A stretch of DNA of 64,000 bases from a virus. Each line of letters opens with the position of its first letter. Positions within the stretch are counted from its first letter, which is position 1. The notes under the pieces were generated by a model that was given only the letters and a program-made list of their open reading frames with translations, did not search any database and was not told the DNA's origin. The translations under genes were made by a program, and so were the position numbers. Of the stretch, positions 38,670 through 63,932 are shown piece after piece. Where the stretch lies: the IMG/VR virus record IMGVR_UViG_3300042508_000221, positions 10,091-74,090 of that record; one strand, 5' to 3'.

Positions 38670-39035
38670 ATGGAGTCCGCGGTTATGTATGGCGCATCTA
38701 CACGCTTCCGAAAGCACTCTGCCTCGTGCGACACGGTGGAGGTGTCGCTATACATGGCCGGCGACATCGAGCACGCAAAACAAGTCATCAGGTTGTATTG
38801 CAAGAACAACCCGACGTGCGTGACCGTGACGCCGACGACGTTCATCTACCGCGGCGGCGAAGAGGCCGGTTTTGTTGTGGGGTTCCGCAACTATCCGAGG
38901 TTTCCGACCGACTTGGCCGCGCTTGAGGCTCACGCCGCGCCTCTTGCAGACGAGCTGCGAGAACAGCTTGGGCAGGACTCGCACATGATCGTAACGGCCA
39001 CAAGTACGACGTGGAGCACCAACCGCGATGCCTGA
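38670..39035 (+). CDS. Hypothetical protein (start uncertain)
   Basis: CVTVTPT.FIY.GGEE.G...NYPRFP. Confidence 0.55.
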   Translation: MESAVMYGASTRFRKHSASCDTVEVSLYMAGDIEHAKQVIRLYCKNNPTCVTVTPTTFIYRGGEEAGFVVGFRNYPRFPTDLAALEAHAAPLADELREQLGQDSHMIVTATSTTWSTNRDA

Positions 39036-39876
39036 GTATCATTTTCTCAACCTGGGTGCGGGCGTTCAATCAACTGCTCTGTACCTCATGAGCATCGACG
39101 GTAGTGAGCCAGAAGTGCCGAAGTTTGATGCCGCGATCTTTGCCGATGTGCAGGAGGAGCCAGATGAGGTCTACACACACCTCGAGCACCTCAAGACGCT
39201 CGGAGGCCCGCCGATCATCGTGACCACTGCGGGCAAGCTTGGTGACGCACTGGATCACAAAGGAAGCGGAAAAACAGGGCACTACACAGCAATCCCGTCT
39301 TACACGCTCAACCCGACAACTGGCAGCAGGGGGATCATCCAGCGTCAATGCACCGCCGACTTCAAGGTGAAGCCGATTGAACGCACCATTCGCGAGGAAT
39401 GCGGAGGTCAGTTTGGTAAGCCCCTGCCGAAAGGCGTCGTTGTTCACCAGTACATGGGCCTATCTTTTGACGAGCCGAAGCGAGTGATCCGAGTTAAGCA
39501 GCGGTTCCTCGCCAAGCCAGCAAGCTGGCAAGTTCATTTCCCTCTTTGGGAAATGCAGATGACGCGATCCGACTGCGTGGCGTACCTAAATTCAAGGATA
39601 ACCTATGAGGTGCCACGATCTGCTTGCGTGTTTTGCCCTTTCAAGGCGGACTCGGAGTGGCGCAGGCTCAAGGAAGAAGACCCGAAGGGCTGGGAGCGGG
39701 CGGTGCATATCGACAAGGTGTGCCGCACTGGGAATGGTCTAGATTCCCATCGGTATCTGCACAAGGCGTGCGTGCCGCTTGATCAAGTTGACCTGCGGCC
39801 TGCCGACGAGAAGAGCGGCCAGAAGCACCTGTTCAGCGGGTTTCAAGACGAGTGCGAAGGCTACTGTGGCAATTAG
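39028..39876 (+). CDS. PAPS-reductase-like PP-loop protein, copy 1
   Basis: LGAGVQS, IFAD..EEP, RQCT.DFK, PRSACVFCP, ECEGYCG. Confidence 0.75.
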   Translation: MPEYHFLNLGAGVQSTALYLMSIDGSEPEVPKFDAAIFADVQEEPDEVYTHLEHLKTLGGPPIIVTTAGKLGDALDHKGSGKTGHYTAIPSYTLNPTTGSRGIIQRQCTADFKVKPIERTIREECGGQFGKPLPKGVVVHQYMGLSFDEPKRVIRVKQRFLAKPASWQVHFPLWEMQMTRSDCVAYLNSRITYEVPRSACVFCPFKADSEWRRLKEEDPKGWERAVHIDKVCRTGNGLDSHRYLHKACVPLDQVDLRPADEKSGQKHLFSGFQDECEGYCGN

Positions 39877-55382: not shown

Positions 55383-55656
55383 GCTCGTGTTCCTCGTGAC
55401 ACTTCTGTGCGCCGGCTGCTCGAGCGCCGCTGAAGACCTTCGGCCGTTCGTCGCGGTGGCCGGCAAGTATTCGCTCATGGCTCAGGCGAAGCCGGGGCCG
55501 GCACCGTCCGATGTTTGTGGCAATTGCCGCGGCCTGGGCTACTTATCTGACGGTCGCGTGCGTAGCGAGTGCCCCGTCTGCAAAGGCACCGGCAAGATCG
55601 TCCCGTCCTCCGCACCATGCAAGGACGGCAAATGTCCGACTCCTACGAACCGCTGA
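55375..55656 (+). CDS. Predicted lipoprotein with DnaJ-type zinc finger
   Basis: Lipobox-like LLCAGC; CGNCRGLG and CPVCKGTG; C.DG.CP tail. Confidence 0.6.
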   Translation: MSKLVFLVTLLCAGCSSAAEDLRPFVAVAGKYSLMAQAKPGPAPSDVCGNCRGLGYLSDGRVRSECPVCKGTGKIVPSSAPCKDGKCPTPTNR

Positions 55657-55976
55657 AGAAATACGTCTCGCGCGCCGGCGGCATCCGGCTGTCGACGCAC
55701 CCTGCACTCCGCGATCAGCTCGTGGAATGGGCGGTCGAGGAGTTCCCGGCCGACGCGCCGCCCGAGCGGATGGAGGAAGTGCTCGCCGCTCGTTTACGCA
55801 TACGGGCTCGTGACAAGTACGGCAGTGTGATCGCCGCGATCCTCATCAGCATTCTCGCCCAACTGATCGTGAAGGCCATCGTCGCGTGGTGGAACAAACG
55901 CCACGCCCATCGGGTTCTCATGGTCGGGTGGCAGGAGCAGGCTCGTGCCAAAAAGAATCCCGACCTACCGTCCTAA
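55632..55976 (+). CDS. Membrane protein with C-terminal TM
   Basis: YGSVIAAILISILAQLIVKAIVAWW. Confidence 0.55.
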   Translation: MSDSYEPLKKYVSRAGGIRLSTHPALRDQLVEWAVEEFPADAPPERMEEVLAARLRIRARDKYGSVIAAILISILAQLIVKAIVAWWNKRHAHRVLMVGWQEQARAKKNPDLPS

Positions 55977-56238
55977 TCGTTCCCCTGCACGGGGGCAGCA
56001 GGAGCGGCCGACGGCGGCGGCTCGCGGCTACTGCACCGCGGCGTGGCGGCGCACCCGACTGGCCGTGATCGCCCGCGACATGGGCATCTGCCAGTTGTGC
56101 GGACTGCTCGTAACCGGGGAGGGCGGCGACATCGACCACATCGTCGAGAAGTCGAAAGGTGGCACCGACGCACTCAGCAATCTCAGGTTGTGCCACAGGG
56201 CGTGCCACTCGAAGCGGACGGCCCGCGACTCGTCTTAG
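55945..56238 (+). CDS. Packaging-associated HNH endonuclease (HK97 gp74-like)
   Basis: MP.R.P, RGY...W...R, CQLC, DHI....GGTD..NL, CHS.RT. Confidence 0.8.
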   Translation: MPKRIPTYRPNRSPARGQQERPTAAARGYCTAAWRRTRLAVIARDMGICQLCGLLVTGEGGDIDHIVEKSKGGTDALSNLRLCHRACHSKRTARDSS

Positions 56239-56525
56239 CGCCGCCGTTCGGCCTTCTCGCGATTGACGCGCTTCTGCGTGCCGCCGGCCGCCCCCCATGC
56301 CTTCACCATCTTCTGGTGGGCCGGCGAGCCGTATGGGTAGTAATAAGCCTTGAGCACCTCGATCTTCGACTTGTGGATCACAGGCTTGCCGAGGAACTCA
56401 TCGACGATCTTTTTGCCGGCCGCCTCCGCCCGCGACACGGCCCTGGCGAGCGTCCGCCTGGGGCAGCCGAGAGCTTCCATGACCTGCTTGATGGTCAGGT
56501 AGTCGCTGGGGTCGATGGGTTTCAT
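56235..56525 (-). CDS. HTH DNA-binding protein
   Basis: DYLT.KQV...LG..R.TL. Confidence 0.55.
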   Translation of the reverse strand: MKPIDPSDYLTIKQVMEALGCPRRTLARAVSRAEAAGKKIVDEFLGKPVIHKSKIEVLKAYYYPYGSPAHQKMVKAWGAAGGTQKRVNREKAERRR

Positions 56526-56920
56526 TAGTTCTCATCTCCTGTGCCGACGAGCACGCCCGAGATGTCCACGCTGATGTTGAGCGAAAGCTCGGGCTCGCCT
56601 TCCGGCTCCAGCGTCAAAATGATCTGCCCGACCTCAACATCGACCTCGTAGCCGATGCCGATGGTCTTGCCTTCCCACTGCGTCTCCAGGCGGTCGAGAG
56701 CCTGCGTGACACGGCCGACGATCGCCTCCGAGGTCTTCCGCTTCCGGCCGTGAGTTTCCACGATCTTGGCGTGGACGCCCTCGGCGGCAAGCTCTTCGAG
56801 CCGCACCTGGGCGGCGTCATACGAAAAACGCTCCGCACGATCAACTTCTTCAGTCCAGTCGCCTGACGCGAGGCGGAAGTGCTCGCCGGCCACATCGCTC
56901 AAAACATACTTCATCGCCAT
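56525..56920 (-). CDS. Hypothetical protein
   Basis: GAGG RBS; coupled to next gene. Confidence 0.55.
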   Translation of the reverse strand: MAMKYVLSDVAGEHFRLASGDWTEEVDRAERFSYDAAQVRLEELAAEGVHAKIVETHGRKRKTSEAIVGRVTQALDRLETQWEGKTIGIGYEVDVEVGQIILTLEPEGEPELSLNISVDISGVLVGTGDEN

Positions 56921-57123
56921 CGTCTTATCCTCTGGTTTCTATACTCTGGGGTACTGGTGACATTCTATGCGTCATGCCCATCATCTGACAATCGAAAAAA
57001 CCGCCTCTATCAAGTCGTGGACGGCCCTCGCCGCCGCGCTCTCCGACCCAAGCAATTGCCCGAGTCGGATGAGCACGAGCGTGCGAACGAGGTCATCCAT
57101 GACCAGTTTCCACGCACGGGGGT

Positions 57124-57435
57124 TCATGCTGGCACGGCCTCCCCGACGCGACTGCCAGCCGCCTTCTTCGTCGCCTCGTTGATCGCGGCCTGGACGCGGT
57201 CGCGGGCCTCGGTCAGTTCGCGAGCCACCGCGGCCCAGGCGTCCGTCTCGCTGTCGCAGATCGTCTCGACTCTCGTCTCGACCGCTCGGATCGTTCCGCT
57301 GGCCGGGTATCTGATCATCACAGAACCGTCGATGACGGCGACAACGTCCGCTCGCAGCACATGGCCGCGAGAGAGTCCGTCATATCCGACGTGAGACGTG
57401 CCGATCCAAACCGTATCGCCTGCTGCATGGCTCAT
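57124..57435 (-). CDS. Hypothetical protein
   Basis: AAGGGGG RBS. Confidence 0.5.
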   Translation of the reverse strand: MSHAAGDTVWIGTSHVGYDGLSRGHVLRADVVAVIDGSVMIRYPASGTIRAVETRVETICDSETDAWAAVARELTEARDRVQAAINEATKKAAGSRVGEAVPA

Positions 57436-57498
57436 TCTGAGCCCCCTTTCTTCAGGTGTAAATCTTCCTTGGTAGCCTATTAAGTATCGGTCAGTAGC

Positions 57499-57675
57499 CT
57501 ACTCGCTCTTGCGACGTTTTCCAGCCCGCTTCTTAGCCCGCAGGCGGTTGATCTCGTCGAGGGCTTCCTGGGCTACGCGATTCATCGCCTCGCGTGCTCC
57601 CGCCTCAGTCGCGATGCCCTGCTTGACCAGCATTGTCAGCCAGCCGGCCTCGTAGGGGGTGATTCGGTTTTTCAT
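57499..57675 (-). CDS. Small basic protein (array gene)
   Basis: GAGGAG RBS preceded by repeat motif. Confidence 0.55.
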   Translation of the reverse strand: MKNRITPYEAGWLTMLVKQGIATEAGAREAMNRVAQEALDEINRLRAKKRAGKRRKSE

Positions 57676-57749
57676 GATCGGGGTCTCCTCGTTTCGCCGC
57701 ACGGGGTTATCACGCTCGGGGGTGGCGTCGGCCCTCGAGCGCGGGTGGG

Positions 57750-58364
57750 TTATTCAAAATAGAGGCTGATCGTATTCTCGACGGGGTAGCCCAAGATGAG
57801 TCCGGTGAGCCACAGGGGACAGTCCTCGATATCCCACTTTCCGCCCAGGAACGAAGAGAGTTTGCGGCTGCCGTACTTGAGGAACTCCGCATTGAACTCG
57901 GGCGTGAAAGCCGGCACCGACGAGGTGTAGTCGCCGATCAATTTCCCCAAGTCGCCGATGTCCTGCACGCGAATGTCGTGGCAGGCTTCGATGTTCCACA
58001 ATCCGCTGATGTGCCCGACCTTGCTCACCTTGGCGACGAGCCCCCCCGCCCGCAGACGCTTCGCCCTCGCCTCCGCCGCCGGCTTCGACCAGTCGCCCAT
58101 CGTGCCCATCGGTTTCTGGCCGGCGATGAGCCTAAGCTCGGTCTCGTCGGACTCGTTTCCGTAGCCGAAAAACGTCCAGCCTCCGCAGAGGTGCTGGTTC
58201 GCGTCATTGACCATCTTCGACTTGAACCGCACCCGCTTGGGAACGTGACGGTATGTGCGGGCGAGGTAGCCGGCGAAGGTGTAATACTTCTTCGTATTCC
58301 ACGCCTTGTGCGGGATCACCTCGACGCCCCCTTTGGGGATGCGCTTTTTCGTAGCTGTCGCCAT
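57750..58364 (-). CDS. Hypothetical protein (array gene)
   Basis: AGGAG RBS plus motif; GLILGYP C-terminus. Confidence 0.6.
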   Translation of the reverse strand: MATATKKRIPKGGVEVIPHKAWNTKKYYTFAGYLARTYRHVPKRVRFKSKMVNDANQHLCGGWTFFGYGNESDETELRLIAGQKPMGTMGDWSKPAAEARAKRLRAGGLVAKVSKVGHISGLWNIEACHDIRVQDIGDLGKLIGDYTSSVPAFTPEFNAEFLKYGSRKLSSFLGGKWDIEDCPLWLTGLILGYPVENTISLYFE

Positions 58365-58433
58365 CGTCTCTCTCCTCTGTTTTCGCCGCACGGGGCCGGC
58401 TGGGTTGTGGTCTATCGTTTCGTCGTTCGGGGG

Positions 58434-58790
58434 TCAGATTCTTCTCGCCACGATCCCGCGGCTCGTCACCGTCCTGGGGGTCGTCGCCTCAACGTCGATC
58501 ATGGGGTAGCCAAACTTGCCATCGGGGCCGCAGTCGTGCGGGGAGCCCGCCGCCACCCGGTGGCGAGCGTAGTCGGCCGCAAACTGCTTCCTGTTTCCGT
58601 AGCGGATCGGCTCGCCAACGGTCGCGTAGCCGACCAGTGTCGCCCGCCCCCGGCCGGTGCGGACGATGCCGACCCGCTTGCCCACATAGGGGCGCAGCGA
58701 GTTTGTTCGCCGGGTTTCGACCGTCTTCTCACCGCTCAGAATCTGAGCGGTGAAAGGCTGCGTCTTGTCGTTAATGTTGATGCCCATCAT
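58434..58790 (-). CDS. ASCH domain protein
   Basis: QPF...ILSGEKTVETR (GxKxxExR). Confidence 0.8.
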   Translation of the reverse strand: MMGININDKTQPFTAQILSGEKTVETRRTNSLRPYVGKRVGIVRTGRGRATLVGYATVGEPIRYGNRKQFAADYARHRVAAGSPHDCGPDGKFGYPMIDVEATTPRTVTSRGIVARRI

Positions 58791-61206
58791 GATCGCACCC
58801 CACAGCAGGCACAGCGGCAATCCCATTGCGAAGCCGGTGATCTATTGGCGCGGTCGGCCTCATCGTCTCCCAGGCACGGCGAATCGGCCTCGACGCAGGC
58901 AGGGCAATAAGGCACCCCGTCGAGCCAGTACCAGGGCTCGGGAACCCCGGCGGCCTTGCGAGCCAGCCGTGCGTTGTGCCGCCATGCCTGGCCGCCGTCG
59001 TAGCTGTAGCGGCGTTTCAATCCAGCCTGCGAGGTCATCCTCGAGATCCCGTAGCCGTCAGTTTCGCTCCATGTTTCAGCAAGCATCGTCGCTCTCCTAG
59101 TGTTTCGCCGGCCGGGGCCGGCTGGGTTATGTGCTCTCGTTTCCACGATCCGGCCTAGACAGTCTTGGGCTCGCCGCAGACCTCCTGCGTGAACCATGTC
59201 CTGCCACCGTCTGTGCTGGCATCAAACCGATACCAGGGCATTCCATCCAGGGGGTGAACGGCTCCCGTCTCATGCACGTTGCGGATCGGGGTGCCCGCGT
59301 CGAGCCAGCCCTCCTCCGTCGCCTGACCGCTGATGCCGTGAATGCCAACGGCATAGGTTCGCGTCTTCAGTGTCAGCAGCGTTTTCGTCTTCATCGTCGT
59401 GCTCCTAGTGTTTCGCCGCTCGGGGCGGCTGGGGTGTGGTTAGCGGCAGAACCGTGTCCGCTCGCGAAGGTCTTGGATGCCGCGGGCCTCGGCCTGCCGG
59501 CGCGTCATCACCAAGTAGAGATAGCCGTTGAGCTTGCGCTCGGCAATCTTCCGGCTTGAAGCCACGCAGGACTTCACGATCTCGTCGGGGCCGCGGCCGT
59601 CGCCGTCCAGAACCGCTACATATTCGCGTTTCATCGTCTCTCTCCTAGTGTTTCGCCGCTCGGGGCGGCAGGGGGTAATCGGGTTCTCGTTTCCACGGGC
59701 CGGGGGTCACAGGGAATGGCACGCATTTCCATCACGCTCGCATCGGCACCAAGCCGCCAGCGCGGCGGGGTCGCCGTCGAGCGTTCGCTCGCATGTCTCC
59801 AACATCGCATCGTCGCCAGCCTCGCCGGCCTCGATCTTCCATCGCTCAACGGCAGTGCTCGCATCAAAGGGCATGGCATCGGGTTCCCCGTGGGGAACAC
59901 GCGCCAGCATCGCCGCCTCGGCCTCCTCTGCGGTCGGGTACGGGCCGCATCCGGCACCGTTCGGCCACGGGTTCTCCCTCATCGGCCCCATATCTCGGCA
60001 GTAATAAACGGTAATCATCGTCGCTCTCCTCGTATCTATGGTTTCGTCGCTCGGGGGGCCACGCTGGCCCGCCGCAATCCCCGGTCAGCATTTCGCCGGC
60101 CGGGGGTAGCGGGGGGTCGTCAGACCACGCGAACACCCAGGCGGCTGGCCCATGCCTGCGATGCTCGCTCCGACTTAAACCGGCGGATCACGCCTCCTGG
60201 GGCCGCCACGACCTCGACGGGGTAGTCGGCATCGCTGCCGCGGCGGATCGTGAGCGCCGGCTGGCGATAGTCCGACCGACGATACAACTCACGGCCGCCG
60301 CGGGCCTCGCGGATGCGAGCCACGCGATTAAGACTGATGACGCCGCCGCCCATGCTTCGCGAGTTCGCGAGAAGGATCATCGCCGGACTTGTGCCGCCAG
60401 TCACGCCGACATAGCCGGTCGTGTCGAAATCCTCAAGCCAATCGACGCCATCATCTCCGGCATAAGACACAGTTACTCGAATGTTTCCAATCCGGCAGCG
60501 GTCAAGAACCTTGACTGCCTCACTGTTAGCGTTGGCCGTGTTTTTCATCGTCGTGTTCATCGCTCTCCCTTTCGTATCGTTTCCCCCGTCCGGGGGTCAT
60601 CGTAGTTTCGTCGCTTCCCCGCCCGCCGGCAACGTGCCGGCGGGGAATCCCGTCAGGCTGCCCCGGCCTGCAAGCGAACGATCATTGCCGCTCGGCAGAT
60701 CGCGTGAATCTTCGCATCCGTCGCATGGTCTGCCGTCCAGCACCAGACGGAGCCGCCGAAAATCTTCGCGGCGGCCTCGTCCATGAAAATCGGGTCAAGG
60801 CGAAACGCTTCCTCGGTGATTTCCCTTGCCCAGGTAATAAAACGACCGCGGGACTGCCCCGCGTGCGGAAACTGGTTGACCATCGCATCCCTCCTTCACA
60901 GAGTTTCTGTTCCCGCCCGCCGGCAACGTGCCGGCGGCCGTTGTATCACTCGGTGGCCTATTCGTCACCGTCTTCATCGTCACCCATCAGCACCAACTCG
61001 CCGCCCATCTGAACGTCGAGCCCCGTGCGGATGATCAATTCGCCCGTAGTCGGGCAGAAATCCAGGGTGCCGTGGCCGTCGAGAATGCAGCGGATTTGGC
61101 GCAGCAGGGTTGCCGTGCCGCCGTCGCTCTCGGGGATGATGATCTCGCCCGTGCCGGCCATGCGAAACTGGGCGGGGTATGTGTCGTCGATGTTTTCGAT
61201 GATCAT
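58787..61206 (-). other. Seven small array ORFs (58787-59086, 59155-59394, 59440-59634, 59707-60018, 60120-60560, 60653-60883, 60958-61206)
   Basis: Each preceded by a GGAG/GAGG-type RBS, usually ...CGATG, and most by the repeat motif. Confidence 0.65.
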
Positions 61207-61347
61207 GGGATCGTTTCCTCTTGGGGGGTTATCGTTTCCGCGGTCGGGGTCACCCGTGCCGCACATCACAAAGGTAGCATCGTCACAGTGTCGGTCAAGT
61301 CTACAATAATTTCAGCGAGTTTCTCGGGGTTTTTTCTGAATGGACAC

Positions 61348-61647
61348 TTAGTGTCCTGAGAATTTCCTACCGTTTCCCGGTCGGGGTGCTCGTTTCGCCA
61401 TACGGGCGGGCGCGCCCTTTGCACCATCTGCCGCGGCACCCTCCCAGGATTCGATCCAGTTGGGGTTTCCGCGGGCGCGCCGGTTTTTTTCGAGGGTTGA
61501 AACGTCTGTTTTTCTGACGCAGGCCACGCCGAAAAAACTTTCCACGATCCCCAGCCGTTTCGCCATACGGTAGCCGGTCGGCTGCGAAATGCCGGCAAGC
61601 TTGCAAGCATCCGCCAACGTCATCCAATCATCAGTATCTATCTTCAC
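61348..61647 (-). CDS. HTH DNA-binding protein
   Basis: DWMTLADAC.LAGIS.PT.YR; resembles 56235..56525. Confidence 0.6.
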   Translation of the reverse strand: MKIDTDDWMTLADACKLAGISQPTGYRMAKRLGIVESFFGVACVRKTDVSTLEKNRRARGNPNWIESWEGAAADGAKGAPARMAKRAPRPGNGRKFSGH

Positions 61648-61712
61648 GGTTTAGGTTTCCTTCTACGGGGTACGGGTTCCCACGCTCGGGGCTGCCGCTG
61701 TATGATGCCGGC

Positions 61713-61964
61713 ATGAAAATCGACACGCTGGCACAACTGGTGAACTGGGCAGCCGCTGAAGCCGCCGATATCGTCCAGGGGCTGCCGCCGGCGCAGGCCA
61801 GCAAAGCAGTTGAGGATATCGGCGGGGTAATTTGGCGGCATGCGTTCGGGCAGGGGCTGCGCCCGGGCGATGATTGGGGATGGATACTCGCCCAGTACGA
61901 TGCCCAGCGGCTGCGCGAAATCGTCGCGGCATCCGCCGAACCGCCCCGCGGCCGCGGCCGATAA
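61713..61964 (+). CDS. Small hypothetical protein
   Basis: Only plausible plus-strand ORF in the region; no RBS evident. Confidence 0.4.
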   Translation: MKIDTLAQLVNWAAAEAADIVQGLPPAQASKAVEDIGGVIWRHAFGQGLRPGDDWGWILAQYDAQRLREIVAASAEPPRGRGR

Positions 61965-62125
61965 CCCGCGGCCGGATCGTTCCCACGCTCGGGGGCCGTC
62001 GCGTTCCCACGCTCGGGGTATCGTCGCGTTCCCACGCTCGGGCTGTCGCGTTCCGCCGGTCGGGGGCCGTCGCGTTCCCACGCTCGGGCTGTCGCTGGTT
62101 TTCATGTTCGGGGGTGTTCATTGTT

Positions 62126-62388
62126 TCGCCTGCCCGTCATCGCCTGCCGTGGGCTGCCGCTGCTCGCCTGCCCGTCATCGCCTGCCGTGGGCTGCCGCTG
62201 CTCGCCTGCCCGTCATCGCCTGCCGTGGGCTGCCGCTGCTCGCCTGCCGTCATCGCCTGCCCGTGGGCTGCCGCTGCTCGCCTGCCCGTCATCGCCTGCC
62301 GTGGGCTGCCGCTGCTCGCCTGCCGTCATCGCCTGCCCGTGGGCTGCCGCTGCTCGCCTGCCGTCATCGCCTGCCCGTGGGCTGCCGC
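62126..62388. repeat. Seven 38-bp tandem repeats in two variants (AAABABB; last unit slightly truncated)
   Basis: A=TCGCCTGCCCGTCATCGCCTGCCGTGGGCTGCCGCTGC; B=TCGCCTGCCGTCATCGCCTGCCCGTGGGCTGCCGCTGC. Confidence 0.95.
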
Positions 62389-62390
62389 AT

Positions 62391-62427
62391 GCACAAGCCC
62401 CGCGGGTGCTGCCCGCGGGGCTTGTGC
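62391..62427. terminator. Perfect 16-bp hairpin downstream of the gp88-like gene
   Basis: GCACAAGCCCCGCGGG-tgctg-CCCGCGGGGCTTGTGC, 8 bp past the stop at 62436. Confidence 0.65.
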
Positions 62428-62435
62428 TGCCCGTT

Positions 62436-63362
62436 TCAATGGATGCCGATGGCAATCGGCAGCGGCATTAGAAATCGCCTGCCCGTCATCGGCGGCAGCG
62501 TGGGAAGGATGACCCCGCATGCATGCCCCTTACTCGTGCAATTCCCGCACACGCCGCGGCACGAGAATACCTTGCCATGCCCATCCGCCGCGGCGGAGTC
62601 TCGAACGTCGCGATGGTAATCAGCATCATCGTACTTTTTGAATCCTTTCGGATGCTTGCGGGAAAGCTTTACCGCGATGAATTCGCCGCGGGTAATTGGA
62701 AGTTCGAGCATGCGTTGACGCATGCCGGCATCGGCATCGTATCGGCTGCCGCTGCTGATGTTTAAGACGTAGTTCGGCGGGAACGGCATCGGGTAGGAAA
62801 GAAACAATTCCCACGATTTCGAGTAGCCATAGCATGCGATATCCTGCCGCTGCGAAAGCAAATTCATCCAAAACATCAACGTCGATGAACTGTCGAAATC
62901 TCCGTCAACGTAAAGCCGGAATGTCACGCCCGCGGGCAGTACCTTGAATGCGTCAATGATCGCCCGCCGATTGAATCGGAGCAGGAGCGTATTCATACAC
63001 TGCCGCAAGAATGCGGCAGGGTATCGCCATGCCCGGAGGGAATAGCAGTATCCTTTGCAATCCCCCGCGCCCGGGCATGTCACAATCGGCAACGTCGAAA
63101 ATGCCACGAATGGCAATTTCACGTTACCTTCCATCGCGAATATTTCATGCGGCAGCCTGCCGGCATCGATGGCGGCGGCGAACCGCAGGAAATAGTATTT
63201 CCACGTTCCGCGCTTGTTCCCCCTGCCGCGGATAGTGCGGGCGATGCGGCGCGCCTCCTCCGCTGCCGCCGGCAGGCTGTCGCATTGCAATTGGCAAAAC
63301 GTGGCGAACCGCATCGCCTGCTTGTTGGTGAACGTGGGACGGTATTTTTTGGCTGTTGTCAT
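62436..63362 (-). CDS. GP88-like protein (radical-SAM-related)
   Basis: GN.KL, FS.LP..TCPGAGDC...CY, FRLYVDGDF, YGYSK. Confidence 0.65.
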   Translation of the reverse strand: MTTAKKYRPTFTNKQAMRFATFCQLQCDSLPAAAEEARRIARTIRGRGNKRGTWKYYFLRFAAAIDAGRLPHEIFAMEGNVKLPFVAFSTLPIVTCPGAGDCKGYCYSLRAWRYPAAFLRQCMNTLLLRFNRRAIIDAFKVLPAGVTFRLYVDGDFDSSSTLMFWMNLLSQRQDIACYGYSKSWELFLSYPMPFPPNYVLNISSGSRYDADAGMRQRMLELPITRGEFIAVKLSRKHPKGFKKYDDADYHRDVRDSAAADGHGKVFSCRGVCGNCTSKGHACGVILPTLPPMTGRRFLMPLPIAIGIH

Positions 63363-63417
63363 CGTATAACCCCTTGAAAAATTGGAAAAATGGCAAACGT
63401 GTCCAGTGTGCGAAAAA

Positions 63418-63672
63418 CTAAAAAGGGCTTGGTTCAAAAGTGTATTTCGATGATGCCGCATGTGCGGCATCCGTGAAATCCCATCGGAAGTAGTCGAGCG
63501 TTCCGGGCGTTACCCTGCCGGAAAACCGAAAGCAGTTAACTAGAACGCCGCCGTGGGGAACGCCATCGGGGAACCGTCCGCCGCTGCCGTCGCCTTCCCA
63601 CGTTGCATAGATATCGCCAACGTGTTTCCCATCGCTCTTGCGGACTACCTTGTGAATGATGCCGTATGTCAT
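63418..63672 (-). CDS. Small hypothetical protein
   Basis: ACGATG start context as in other array genes. Confidence 0.45.
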   Translation of the reverse strand: MTYGIIHKVVRKSDGKHVGDIYATWEGDGSGGRFPDGVPHGGVLVNCFRFSGRVTPGTLDYFRWDFTDAAHAASSKYTFEPSPF

Positions 63673-63827
63673 CGTCTTCGCCCCCGTTTCGAGTGTCGCG
63701 GGTTTCTGCCCGCTTGGTGAATGCTAGTCTATCGGATGCCGGCATGCAATAGGGTAACGAATTTTATCGGCAAGCCCCTTGAATGTGCCGCGGAAATTCC
63801 ATGTGGACAGTTGGTATCGTGAGAATT

Positions 63828-63932
63828 TCACGCCTCACGCCTCACGCCTCACGCCTCACGCCTCACGCCTCACTCCTCACGCCTCACGCCTCACGCCTCA
63901 CGCCTCACGCCTCACGCCTCACGCCTCGCGCC
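63828..63932. repeat. Heptamer microsatellite (TCACGCC)x14 plus one degenerate unit
   Basis: Counted directly; unit 7 is TCACTCC, final unit TCGCGCC. Confidence 0.95.

Follow-up and report, generated by a model that had tools for sequence, protein, structure and literature searches.

Which molecule reads a short GC-rich word that recurs, in nearly every case pointing the same way, between the small genes at one end of an uncultured phage genome? The word lies in the IMG/VR record IMGVR_UViG_3300042508_000221, of which we analyzed bases 10091-74090; this stretch, called the window below, is the right 64 kb of a 74,090-bp record that CheckV rates as complete. An initial annotation of the window had described the word as CCCG-N6-GRAAC in a gene array at 57675-62090 and had proposed three explanations: joints for an integron-like gain and loss of genes, a phage promoter or operator, or a signal for RNA processing or antitermination. 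We tentatively favor the operator part of the second proposal, namely that the word is a putative binding site of a phage winged-helix regulator, acting as an operator and roadblock in the manner of stoperators, and that the conserved spacers which carry it may double as crossover points.

A word locked in orientation and confined to one gene array

On the plus strand of the window the word was searched as GTTYC-N6-CGGG; the form on the coding strand is CCCCG-N6-GRAAC. Nineteen exact matches were found where 1.93 are expected, and none of 100 shuffles exceeded six; the array is real. All 19 matches lie within 55979-62088 and 18 of them have the same orientation, so that the uniform direction initially reported for about 20 copies holds for all exact copies except one. 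When N5 or N7 spacing or one mismatch is admitted, the array holds about 28 sites on the coding (minus) strand, 18 of them exact and about 10 near-exact. Elsewhere the word is missing: the remaining 58 kb of the window, where the initial annotation had not noticed it either, and the 10 kb that precede the window in the genome contain zero copies, and relaxing the spacer to N5-N8 added copies only inside the array zone. The span first given does contain the array, but the zone runs further, to a five-copy cluster at 61979-62088 and to copies at 57106-57307. A 28-bp identity between 59402 and 59642 was also as described, being exact and ending there without further extension.

Related loci were collected with two genes of the region. 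A GP88-like gene (PF17338) led to five contigs, and a conserved 83-amino-acid gene antisense to the array (anti83) led to more; in all, the word is conserved over about 35 related contigs or loci, which are designated L with a number. An initial genome-wide scan with the tandem pattern had returned mostly chance matches in GC-rich genomes; a scan for two tandem copies yielded about 27 viral contigs, most of them with 10-26 copies. Each relative of sufficient length has 14-25 copies in a single orientation within a 6-9-kb block near one contig end, and the reversed control pattern gave 0-2 matches in the same relatives. Pooled over 35 loci (335 kb), 548 copies are forward and 5 are reverse.

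In five bacterial genome bins the word occurs only on phage-like contigs, the remainder of these genomes being at control level. It is therefore a phage word, and a host signal was rejected as its explanation. We firmly regard the word as a selected, phage-specific and direction-sensitive signal that accompanies almost every exchangeable gene in an early operon. The phage itself must encode the reader, or the reader must at least not be shared with host genes.

Anatomy of the word

The logo of 513 distinct copies reads C(90%)-CCCG-A(63%)-n-C(80%)-G(85%)-k-s-G-A/G-AAC, followed by a weak S-A-G-A. Thus the outer blocks of the initial pattern stand, whereas its N6 is not free: inner bases are conserved as well (C-CCCG-A-n-C-G-k-s-G-R-AAC), and the word is a contiguous, asymmetric 16-mer in otherwise unconserved flanks. 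The centers of the CCCCG and GRAAC blocks are about 11 bp, i. e. one helical turn, apart, with the inner CG between them. Copies are arranged in head-to-tail clusters and pairs; their start-to-start spacing peaks at 21, 23 and 25 bp, and there are in addition copies that abut at 15 bp.

An anchored alignment of 514 copies showed no excess of complementary pairs and at most 0.14 bit of mutual information between positions, which rules out a conserved hairpin around the word. The hairpins quoted in the initial annotation are present in a subset of copies and are not a conserved feature. One hairpin, CCGGCACGTTGCCGG (inside GCCGGCACGTTGCCGGCGGGCGGG), recurs in two spacers of the window (60626-60640 and 60920-60934), and hairpins of a similar kind with a CACGTTG loop are found in spacers of L011 and L147. 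Rfam gave no match at E <= 1 in the window region and none at E <= 0.1 in four relatives. CUGANGA stands upstream of 18 of the 548 copies where about 10 are expected, which is no enrichment, and no CUGANGA ... GAAA core was found; a hammerhead or another known RNA family was thus rejected. With neither a fold nor covariation, an Rfam family or a hammerhead core, a structured RNA drops out of the processing or antitermination proposal, and a linear RNA word stays as a rival. A conserved -10 element was sought at any distance from the word, and none was found.

Position of the word relative to genes

Read on the coding strand from the minus-strand genes within 57499-61647, the spacers, 45-101 nt in length, follow the scheme stop-[CCCG-N6/7-GRAAC]-...-[CCCG-N6-GAAAC]-ACT-AGGAG-N7-ATG. 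As the initial annotation had it, the small genes between these homologous spacers are unrelated: no paralogue matches were found among the array proteins, most of which were assigned to neither a Pfam nor a PHROG family. A start codon follows about half of the copies at a distance of 3-30 nt. With the relatives included, two distances prevail between the end of the word and the start codon that follows. At 5-6 nt, a large class in the relatives, the Shine-Dalgarno sequence lies inside the word itself (GAGGAAAC-N5/6-ATG); at about 15 nt, the prevailing form in the window, a separate AGGAG follows the word. Where genes overlap, the copy sits within the upstream gene. The remaining copies are found 1-3 nt past a stop codon or in tandem clusters with no gene behind them. 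A promoter scan of the spacers found none. The sole spacer without the main word has two copies of TAGGCTAC (57472-57501), which is also found in spacers of L011 and L016.

Genes are exchanged at the spacers

The variable genes of the window (57750-61206) have no homologues in L010 or L011, whereas the flanks do. Whole spacers can be aligned between phages at 77-89% identity even when both adjoining genes differ. Close pairs, such as L011 and L016 or L019 and the window, keep their spacers but differ by the replacement, insertion or loss of genes, and in L016 an extra gene lies between the copies of a duplicated 47-bp spacer. Among 162 internal ends of homology blocks from 14 pairs, which are not independent events, 62% lie within 30 nt of an exact copy compared with 16.5% of random positions; the median distance from block end to copy is 22 nt compared with 126 nt. 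Breakpoints at gene boundaries are favored in all mosaic phages; even so, the breakpoints between relatives clearly tend to coincide with the motif. Logan contigs from other lake samples also part from the window at spacers, in one case precisely at the first base of a copy (59102); with matching sides of just 21-65 nt, which may stem from relatives or repeats, these divergences are a hint only.

Hence the proposal of recombination joints is borne out as a pattern, in that relatives swap, insert and delete genes exactly at motif-bearing spacers. Its integron-like part is not: there is no adjacent integrase (the only PF00589 match is about 27 kb off), no attC-type pairing and no GTTRRRY core. 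Whatever the reader of the word, the shared spacers would be an obvious substrate for gene shuffling.

A winged-helix protein accompanies the array

The last gene of the operon encodes HTH96, a predicted helix-turn-helix (HTH) protein. The word and this winged-helix gene co-occur: about 20 related loci have a homologue of HTH96 at the end of the array, with convergent HNH and p135 genes behind it, and a search by the HTH96 protein alone found four further contigs, all with 7-17 correctly oriented copies upstream. The family is small, with 82 representatives among 1.84 billion. An AlphaFold2 model of HTH96 (predicted local distance difference test, pLDDT, 81.5) shows a beta-alpha-alpha-beta-beta winged helix plus three helices, of the MerR/excisionase type. 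Foldseek matched this model to TraN, BldC, RacA, Pukovnik Xis and RdfS with probabilities of 0.85-1.0 and weak E-values of 0.09-0.4, and there is a weak PHROG match to recombination directionality factors (RDFs). Arg24 is present in at least 90% of 15 sequences and Arg28 in all of them, down to 31% overall identity; both residues (window numbering) are predicted to lie within the recognition helix. Across HTH96 homologues the word is unchanged down to the same overall identity.

Two proteins of this fold offer a precedent. BldC of Streptomyces binds asymmetric direct repeats as head-to-tail multimers (PMC5859096), and Gp36 of phage D29, whose GC-rich binding repeats are 21 bp apart, is a repressor of phage genes downstream of them (PMC12266134).

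A second protein of the array, HTH99, appears by eye to be related to HTH96 as a paralogue. Its homologues stand at the head of the array in L144, L156 and L161 and at its tail in L167. Other candidates were sought in the phage genome itself, where HTH_3 (CI/Cro-type) proteins gave no match and HTH_17 gave three weak ones; among ten proteins near the integrase that were scanned for a CI-type repressor, none was recognized. Single-protein scans for distant HTH96 homologues found none. The most likely reader of the word would be a candidate encoded in the array itself, HTH96 as the product of the last gene or HTH99 at the head.

What the word may do

A possible interpretation is that transcription of the small accessory genes is begun by host RNA polymerase at the sigma-70-like promoters close to the end of the genome. 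With growing amounts of the winged-helix protein, or in a lysogen, monomers would load head to tail on the tandem cluster beside the promoter and also on the one or two copies in each spacer. The bound protein could then serve as operator and as a series of orientation-dependent roadblocks, shutting down or silencing the whole cassette block. A last-gene product that closes its own operon would make a simple loop for early shutoff or lysogenic silencing. Since every cassette would have to carry the same spacer of about 45-100 nt, the spacers would also give short homologies for the swap, gain and loss of genes.

We infer action on DNA, a winged-helix reader and a negative sign of regulation from several features. 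A site at the DNA level is favored because the word is a linear, asymmetric 16-mer with outer blocks one helical turn apart; because its head-to-tail clusters and pairs are about two turns apart, some of them upstream of a predicted promoter and without a start codon; because the one protein family that tracks the array has the direct-repeat-binding fold of BldC and D29 Gp36; and because orientation-locked intergenic operators have a precedent in the L5-type stoperators (PMC9283540). The presence of an integrase, as in a temperate phage, the lack of a detected HTH_3 repressor and the absence of the word from the rest of the five bacterial genomes were also counted in its favor. Several observations weigh on the other side. 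The tight link to start codons and the Shine-Dalgarno sequence within the word are predicted by an mRNA signal, whereas a DNA roadblock needs neither. Some copies abut at 15 bp, and the spacings deviate from a strict helical phasing. No copy stands ahead of the conserved tail genes, not even of HTH96. The Foldseek matches have weak E-values, and the co-occurrence with HTH96 is limited to one phage lineage, so that it may reflect shared ancestry only.

Because the link to start codons fits an mRNA reader at least equally well, a start-associated signal at the RNA level is kept beside the DNA site as a somewhat unlikely but serious rival. Here the word would be a linear site in the polycistronic mRNA at or overlapping each ribosome-binding site, and translation or stability would be set cassette by cassette. 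The binder could be a translational repressor or activator in the style of RegA or CsrA, a processing nuclease, or an antisense RNA, for which the 3' part of the anti83 transcript with its five antisense copies is a candidate; the five tandem copies do come, in the antisense sense, after the anti83 gene. The strict sense orientation of the word would be expected of such a signal, as would one copy per variable gene at 5-6 or about 15 nt from the start with the Shine-Dalgarno sequence embedded in many relatives, the retention of copies inside the upstream gene where genes overlap, and a layout like that of the start-associated sequences (SAS) of Cluster K phages (PMC3203893). It fits poorly with the tandem clusters and post-stop copies that have no start codon, the cluster being upstream of the predicted promoter in several relatives, and with the preferred spacing of 21-25 bp, which has no obvious meaning on RNA. 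Moreover, neither a conserved structure nor covariation was found for the word, no RNA-binding protein was recognized among the array products, and anti83 occurs in just 8 of about 35 loci. The same reader could also act on DNA with the opposite sign, which we hold to be improbable: an antiterminator or elongation factor would be loaded or reloaded at the word in the manner of AlpA, Q or ops/RfaH, and a winged-helix or host factor on the DNA or the non-template strand would allow read-through of GC-rich hairpins between the cassettes. AlpA, an HTH_17 protein, is a DNA-loaded antiterminator. Such loading is consistent with an orientation locked to transcription, with copies placed shortly behind the promoter and behind each gene, and with several first-in-spacer copies that lie in a GC-rich hairpin (60626-60640 and 60920-60934; CCGGCCGG stems in L011). 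However, the hairpins are not general and have no U-tracts, the upstream tandem clusters would be unneeded, and no NusG or Q-like gene was recognized.

A function as dedicated site-specific recombination site is more doubtful still. A recombinase would capture and excise cassettes at the word, which would be a crossover site without a dedicated integron integrase, and the two Xis/RDF-like proteins on either side of the array would gather on its direct copies as directionality factors and steer a phage or host recombinase to single-gene cassettes. Direct copies do flank the genes, the first lying 1-3 nt past the stop codon and the other ahead of the ribosome-binding site, and one or two copies per spacer are what cassette joining predicts; the breakpoints at the word, the duplicated 47-bp spacer of L016, the contig divergence at 59102 and the weak PHROG match of HTH96 point in the same direction. 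Against this, no recombinase adjoins any array, the one integrase gene being about 27 kb distant, the asymmetric word has neither an inverted repeat nor attC-like pairing, breakpoints at gene boundaries are usual in mosaic phages anyway, and homology usually spans the whole spacer, which is explained by ordinary homologous exchange. Least probable of all is a promoter for a phage-specific or alternative holoenzyme of the extracytoplasmic function (ECF) type, with one transcription start per cassette. GGAAC resembles ECF -35 elements, the word is one-directional and upstream of genes, and tandem promoters are known in some phage early regions. Yet no conserved -10 or other element stands at a fixed distance, and the start codon is often only 5-6 nt past the word, so that the ribosome-binding site would go untranscribed. 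Candidate host genomes are without the word outside phage contigs, and searches of the phage genome found neither a T7-type RNA polymerase (PF00940) nor a sigma-70 region 2 gene; for PF00940 this is a weak negative, since the same search was blank in all control genomes. Thus the promoter part of the initial proposal finds no support, and its operator part is the reading we prefer.

Organization of the array and its surroundings

The last 8-9 kb of the genome read leftward, and the features below are on the minus strand unless stated otherwise. The head cluster (61979-62088) consists of five exact tandem copies, 22-25 bp apart (62074-62088, 62050-62064, 62028-62042, 62003-62017 and 61979-61993), and an extra copy with one mismatch is found at 62098-62112. 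Between this cluster and the next pair of copies (61676-61690 and 61655-61669) lies anti83 (61713-61964, plus strand, antisense to the array). A promoter scan gave a putative anti83 promoter, TTCCCA-18-TATGAT (61677-61706, plus strand), with its -35 within a motif copy. The putative -10 (TATGAT) is six nt before the ATG, and therefore the mRNA may be nearly leaderless; the transcript would continue into the five tandem copies and would therefore carry antisense copies of the word. Homologues of anti83 with 43-63% identity occupy the same position in L010, L011, L015, L016, L019, L036 and L037, and no Pfam or PHROG family was found for it.

The second copy of the pair gives the AAGGA ribosome-binding site of the HTH99 gene (61348-61647; winged-helix, weak HTH_17 match), and two further copies lie in the 3' end of this gene (61392-61406 and 61372-61385). 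They are followed by a conserved box, AATTCTCAGGACACTAAGTGTCCA (61341-61364), an AT-rich stretch, and the predicted sigma-70-like array promoter with -35 TTGACC (61293-61298), a 16-nt spacer and -10 TACCTT (61271-61276); the next word copy is at 61234-61248. A head of this plan is common to many relatives: long tandem repeats are followed by an equivalent cluster of 3-7 tandem copies of the word, by a small gene (anti83 reversed, a g131-type gene or HTH99), by the box AATTCTCACG-N-TACCAACTGTCCAC, an AT-rich stretch and a promoter TTGACy-N16-TAyyyT, and about 15-20 nt past the promoter by one or two word copies and the first ATG. The layout of box, promoter and motif is also found in L143, L149, L152, L164, L165 and L166 (TTGACT-N16-TAyyyT) and in a variant form in L016, L020, L037 and L140. 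Only two promoter regions are conserved, and word copies flank the predicted hexamers without overlapping them. The box AATTCTCACG-N-TACCAACTGTCCAC lies about 45-60 nt upstream of sigma-70-like promoters in at least 10 relatives, and in the window it is a partial palindrome, GGACAC..GTGTCC; it is probably an operator of another regulator.

The cassette part (57691-61248) comprises nine variable small genes. In transcription order these are g13 (60958-61206), g12 (60653-60883), g11 (60120-60560), g10 (59707-60018), g9 (59440-59634), g8 (59155-59394), g7 (58787-59086), g6 (58434-58790) and g5 (57750-58364). Only g12 and g6 have homologues in the related arrays examined; a viral relative of g5 was sought and none was found. 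Exact spacer copies are at 61234-61248, 60041-60055, 59650-59664, 59410-59424, 59102-59116, 58417-58431 and 57691-57705, and copies with N7 or one mismatch at 61213-61227, 60909-60923, 60579-60594, 60090-60104, 59689-59704, 59139-59153 and 58380-58394.

The conserved operon tail (56235-57675) has copies of the word only inside genes (57293-57307 and 57106-57120). It consists of g4 (57499-57675), g103 (57124-57435), a 48-amino-acid open reading frame (56981-57127), g131 (56525-56920) and, with an overlapping start TAATG, HTH96 (56235-56525). The convergent p135 and HNH endonuclease genes (55569-56238, plus strand; Pfam HNH E = 9e-11), which are conserved beside HTH96 in relatives, bound the array distally, and a stray copy of the word (55979-55993) lies within their region. 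Of the two domains of the g131 product, the C-terminal one (about 70 amino acids) has a W-GKTIGIGYD motif and by itself forms the first gene behind the tandem cluster in other phages (L020, L121, L140, L143 and L153); a structure model of g131 (pLDDT 74.6) gave no fold match.

Directly upstream of the motif cluster, a 38-bp tandem repeat (62126-62388; 6.9 copies, 97% matches) is followed by a perfect hairpin with a 16-bp stem (62391-62427). Relatives have different long direct repeats at the same place, and their contigs frequently end there, so that these repeats may break assemblies; the repeats at the array head could be iterons or packaging signals. Further upstream, a module at 62436-63827 consists of a second box (63803-63827), a second predicted promoter TTGCAT-17-TAGCAT (63721-63749), an 84-amino-acid gene (63418-63672) and the GP88-like gene (62436-63362; PF17338, E = 6e-15). 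The GP88-like protein has two conserved cysteine clusters, CPGAG-C-G-C and C-G-CG-C-GHAC, and homologues with 60-68% identity precede the arrays of L010-L014 and L019. Adjoining the second box and promoter, 15 copies of the 7-bp TCACGCC (63828-63932) are found at the right end of the genome.

Genome, source and possible host

The left part of the genome contains terminase, portal, protease and capsid genes, and the middle contains tail and replication genes plus one tyrosine integrase (PF00589; genome positions 38850-39326). Because this integrase gene is present, the phage is probably temperate. The sequence was found in 24 public runs, all of them lake or freshwater DNA metagenomes. No cultured phage is closely related: the GP88-like protein had no match among 50,697 phage records, and the terminase is just 32% identical to that of Cluster E mycobacteriophages. 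A prophage and host search with the GP88-like protein found nothing. Array contigs from four loci (L020, L022, L036 and L119) are phage-like and were binned in Pirellulales/Planctomycetaceae genomes, one of them in a Cephaloticoccus genome, and the scan for tandem copies found short array contigs binned in one unclassified genome as well. Judged by binning alone, Planctomycetota are a plausible host, and the binning hints that the lineage infects Planctomycetota or related bacteria of the Planctomycetota-Verrucomicrobiota-Chlamydiota (PVC) group. To our knowledge, very few phages of PVC bacteria are known.

Comparison with known systems

Oriented junction words, i. e. stoperators, SAS and the promoter early stem-loop (PeSL) cassettes, are known from a small number of phage groups in culture, and what SAS do has been an open question since 2011. 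A signal of this kind is now found in a large uncultured freshwater lineage that may infect Planctomycetota. Here the clean layout, with a tandem cluster, a conserved promoter, a word per swappable gene and a terminal winged-helix gene, gives a concrete candidate for the reader. The 16-mer also provides a search handle for hundreds of exchangeable early genes in metagenomes, which are likely candidates for host takeover or anti-defence. If the word is a DNA roadblock, stoperator-type silencing would extend beyond actinophages and to a different protein fold; if cassettes are exchanged at it, this phage lineage would trade early, probably anti-defence, genes in an integron-like way.

In the operator/stoperator systems of Cluster A phages, exemplified by L5 gp71 and the TipsytheTRex repressor, a monomeric protein binds an asymmetric site (PMC9283540). 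As in these systems, many copies of an asymmetric word of about 13-16 bp lie in short intergenic spaces, their orientation follows transcription, and the phage is probably temperate. Unlike stoperators, the copies are within one 6-kb early array and not across both genome arms, they form tandem clusters and pairs, they are tied to start codons, and none overlaps the predicted promoter hexamers. Furthermore, Pfam and PHROGs recognized no gp71-type repressor (HTH plus stoperator domain) among the proteins scanned; here a small winged helix like Xis or BldC is the candidate reader, and the L5 site sequence, GGTGGMTGTCAAG, is unrelated.

The SAS and extended SAS (ESAS) of Cluster K were described by Pope et al. 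in 2011 (PMC3203893). They share with the word an asymmetric sequence in one orientation, restriction to the non-structural region, conservation before unrelated genes, absence from the (here candidate) host genomes and, in a large class of the relatives, a position a few nucleotides before starts where it can contain the Shine-Dalgarno sequence. In contrast to SAS, about half of the copies are not at starts (head clusters and post-stop copies), and the word of the window is mostly 15 nt before the start with a separate AGGAG, while the large class in the relatives is at 5-6 nt; the sequence is another one and there is no ESAS-type inverted repeat. The PeSL cassettes of T4-type phages, which consist of a sigma-70 promoter and a terminator stem-loop (Arbiol et al. 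2010, PMC2839356; Comeau et al. 2014, PMC4122927), are similar in that the orphan genes of a hyperplastic early region lie between short, conserved spacers with a regulatory role and in that insertions, deletions and replacements between close relatives map to the spacers. However, the spacers described here have no promoter or conserved stem-loop, and there are one or two promoters per array.

From integrons the array differs in that the only tyrosine recombinase is about 27 kb away and in that the word is asymmetric and shows no excess pairing (no R''-L''/L'-R' boxes), and from arrays of self-cleaving ribozymes in that there is no match to a covariance model and no CUGANGA ... GAAA core. With BldC (PMC5859096) and D29 Gp36 (PMC12266134), HTH96 shares the modelled fold, and their repeats are likewise asymmetric, GC-rich, direct and variable in number; yet there is no similarity of protein or site sequence, and few sites are found there compared with about 28 through the operon here. 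Thus the system misses at least one defining feature each of stoperators, SAS, PeSLs and integrons, and works like a blend of them.

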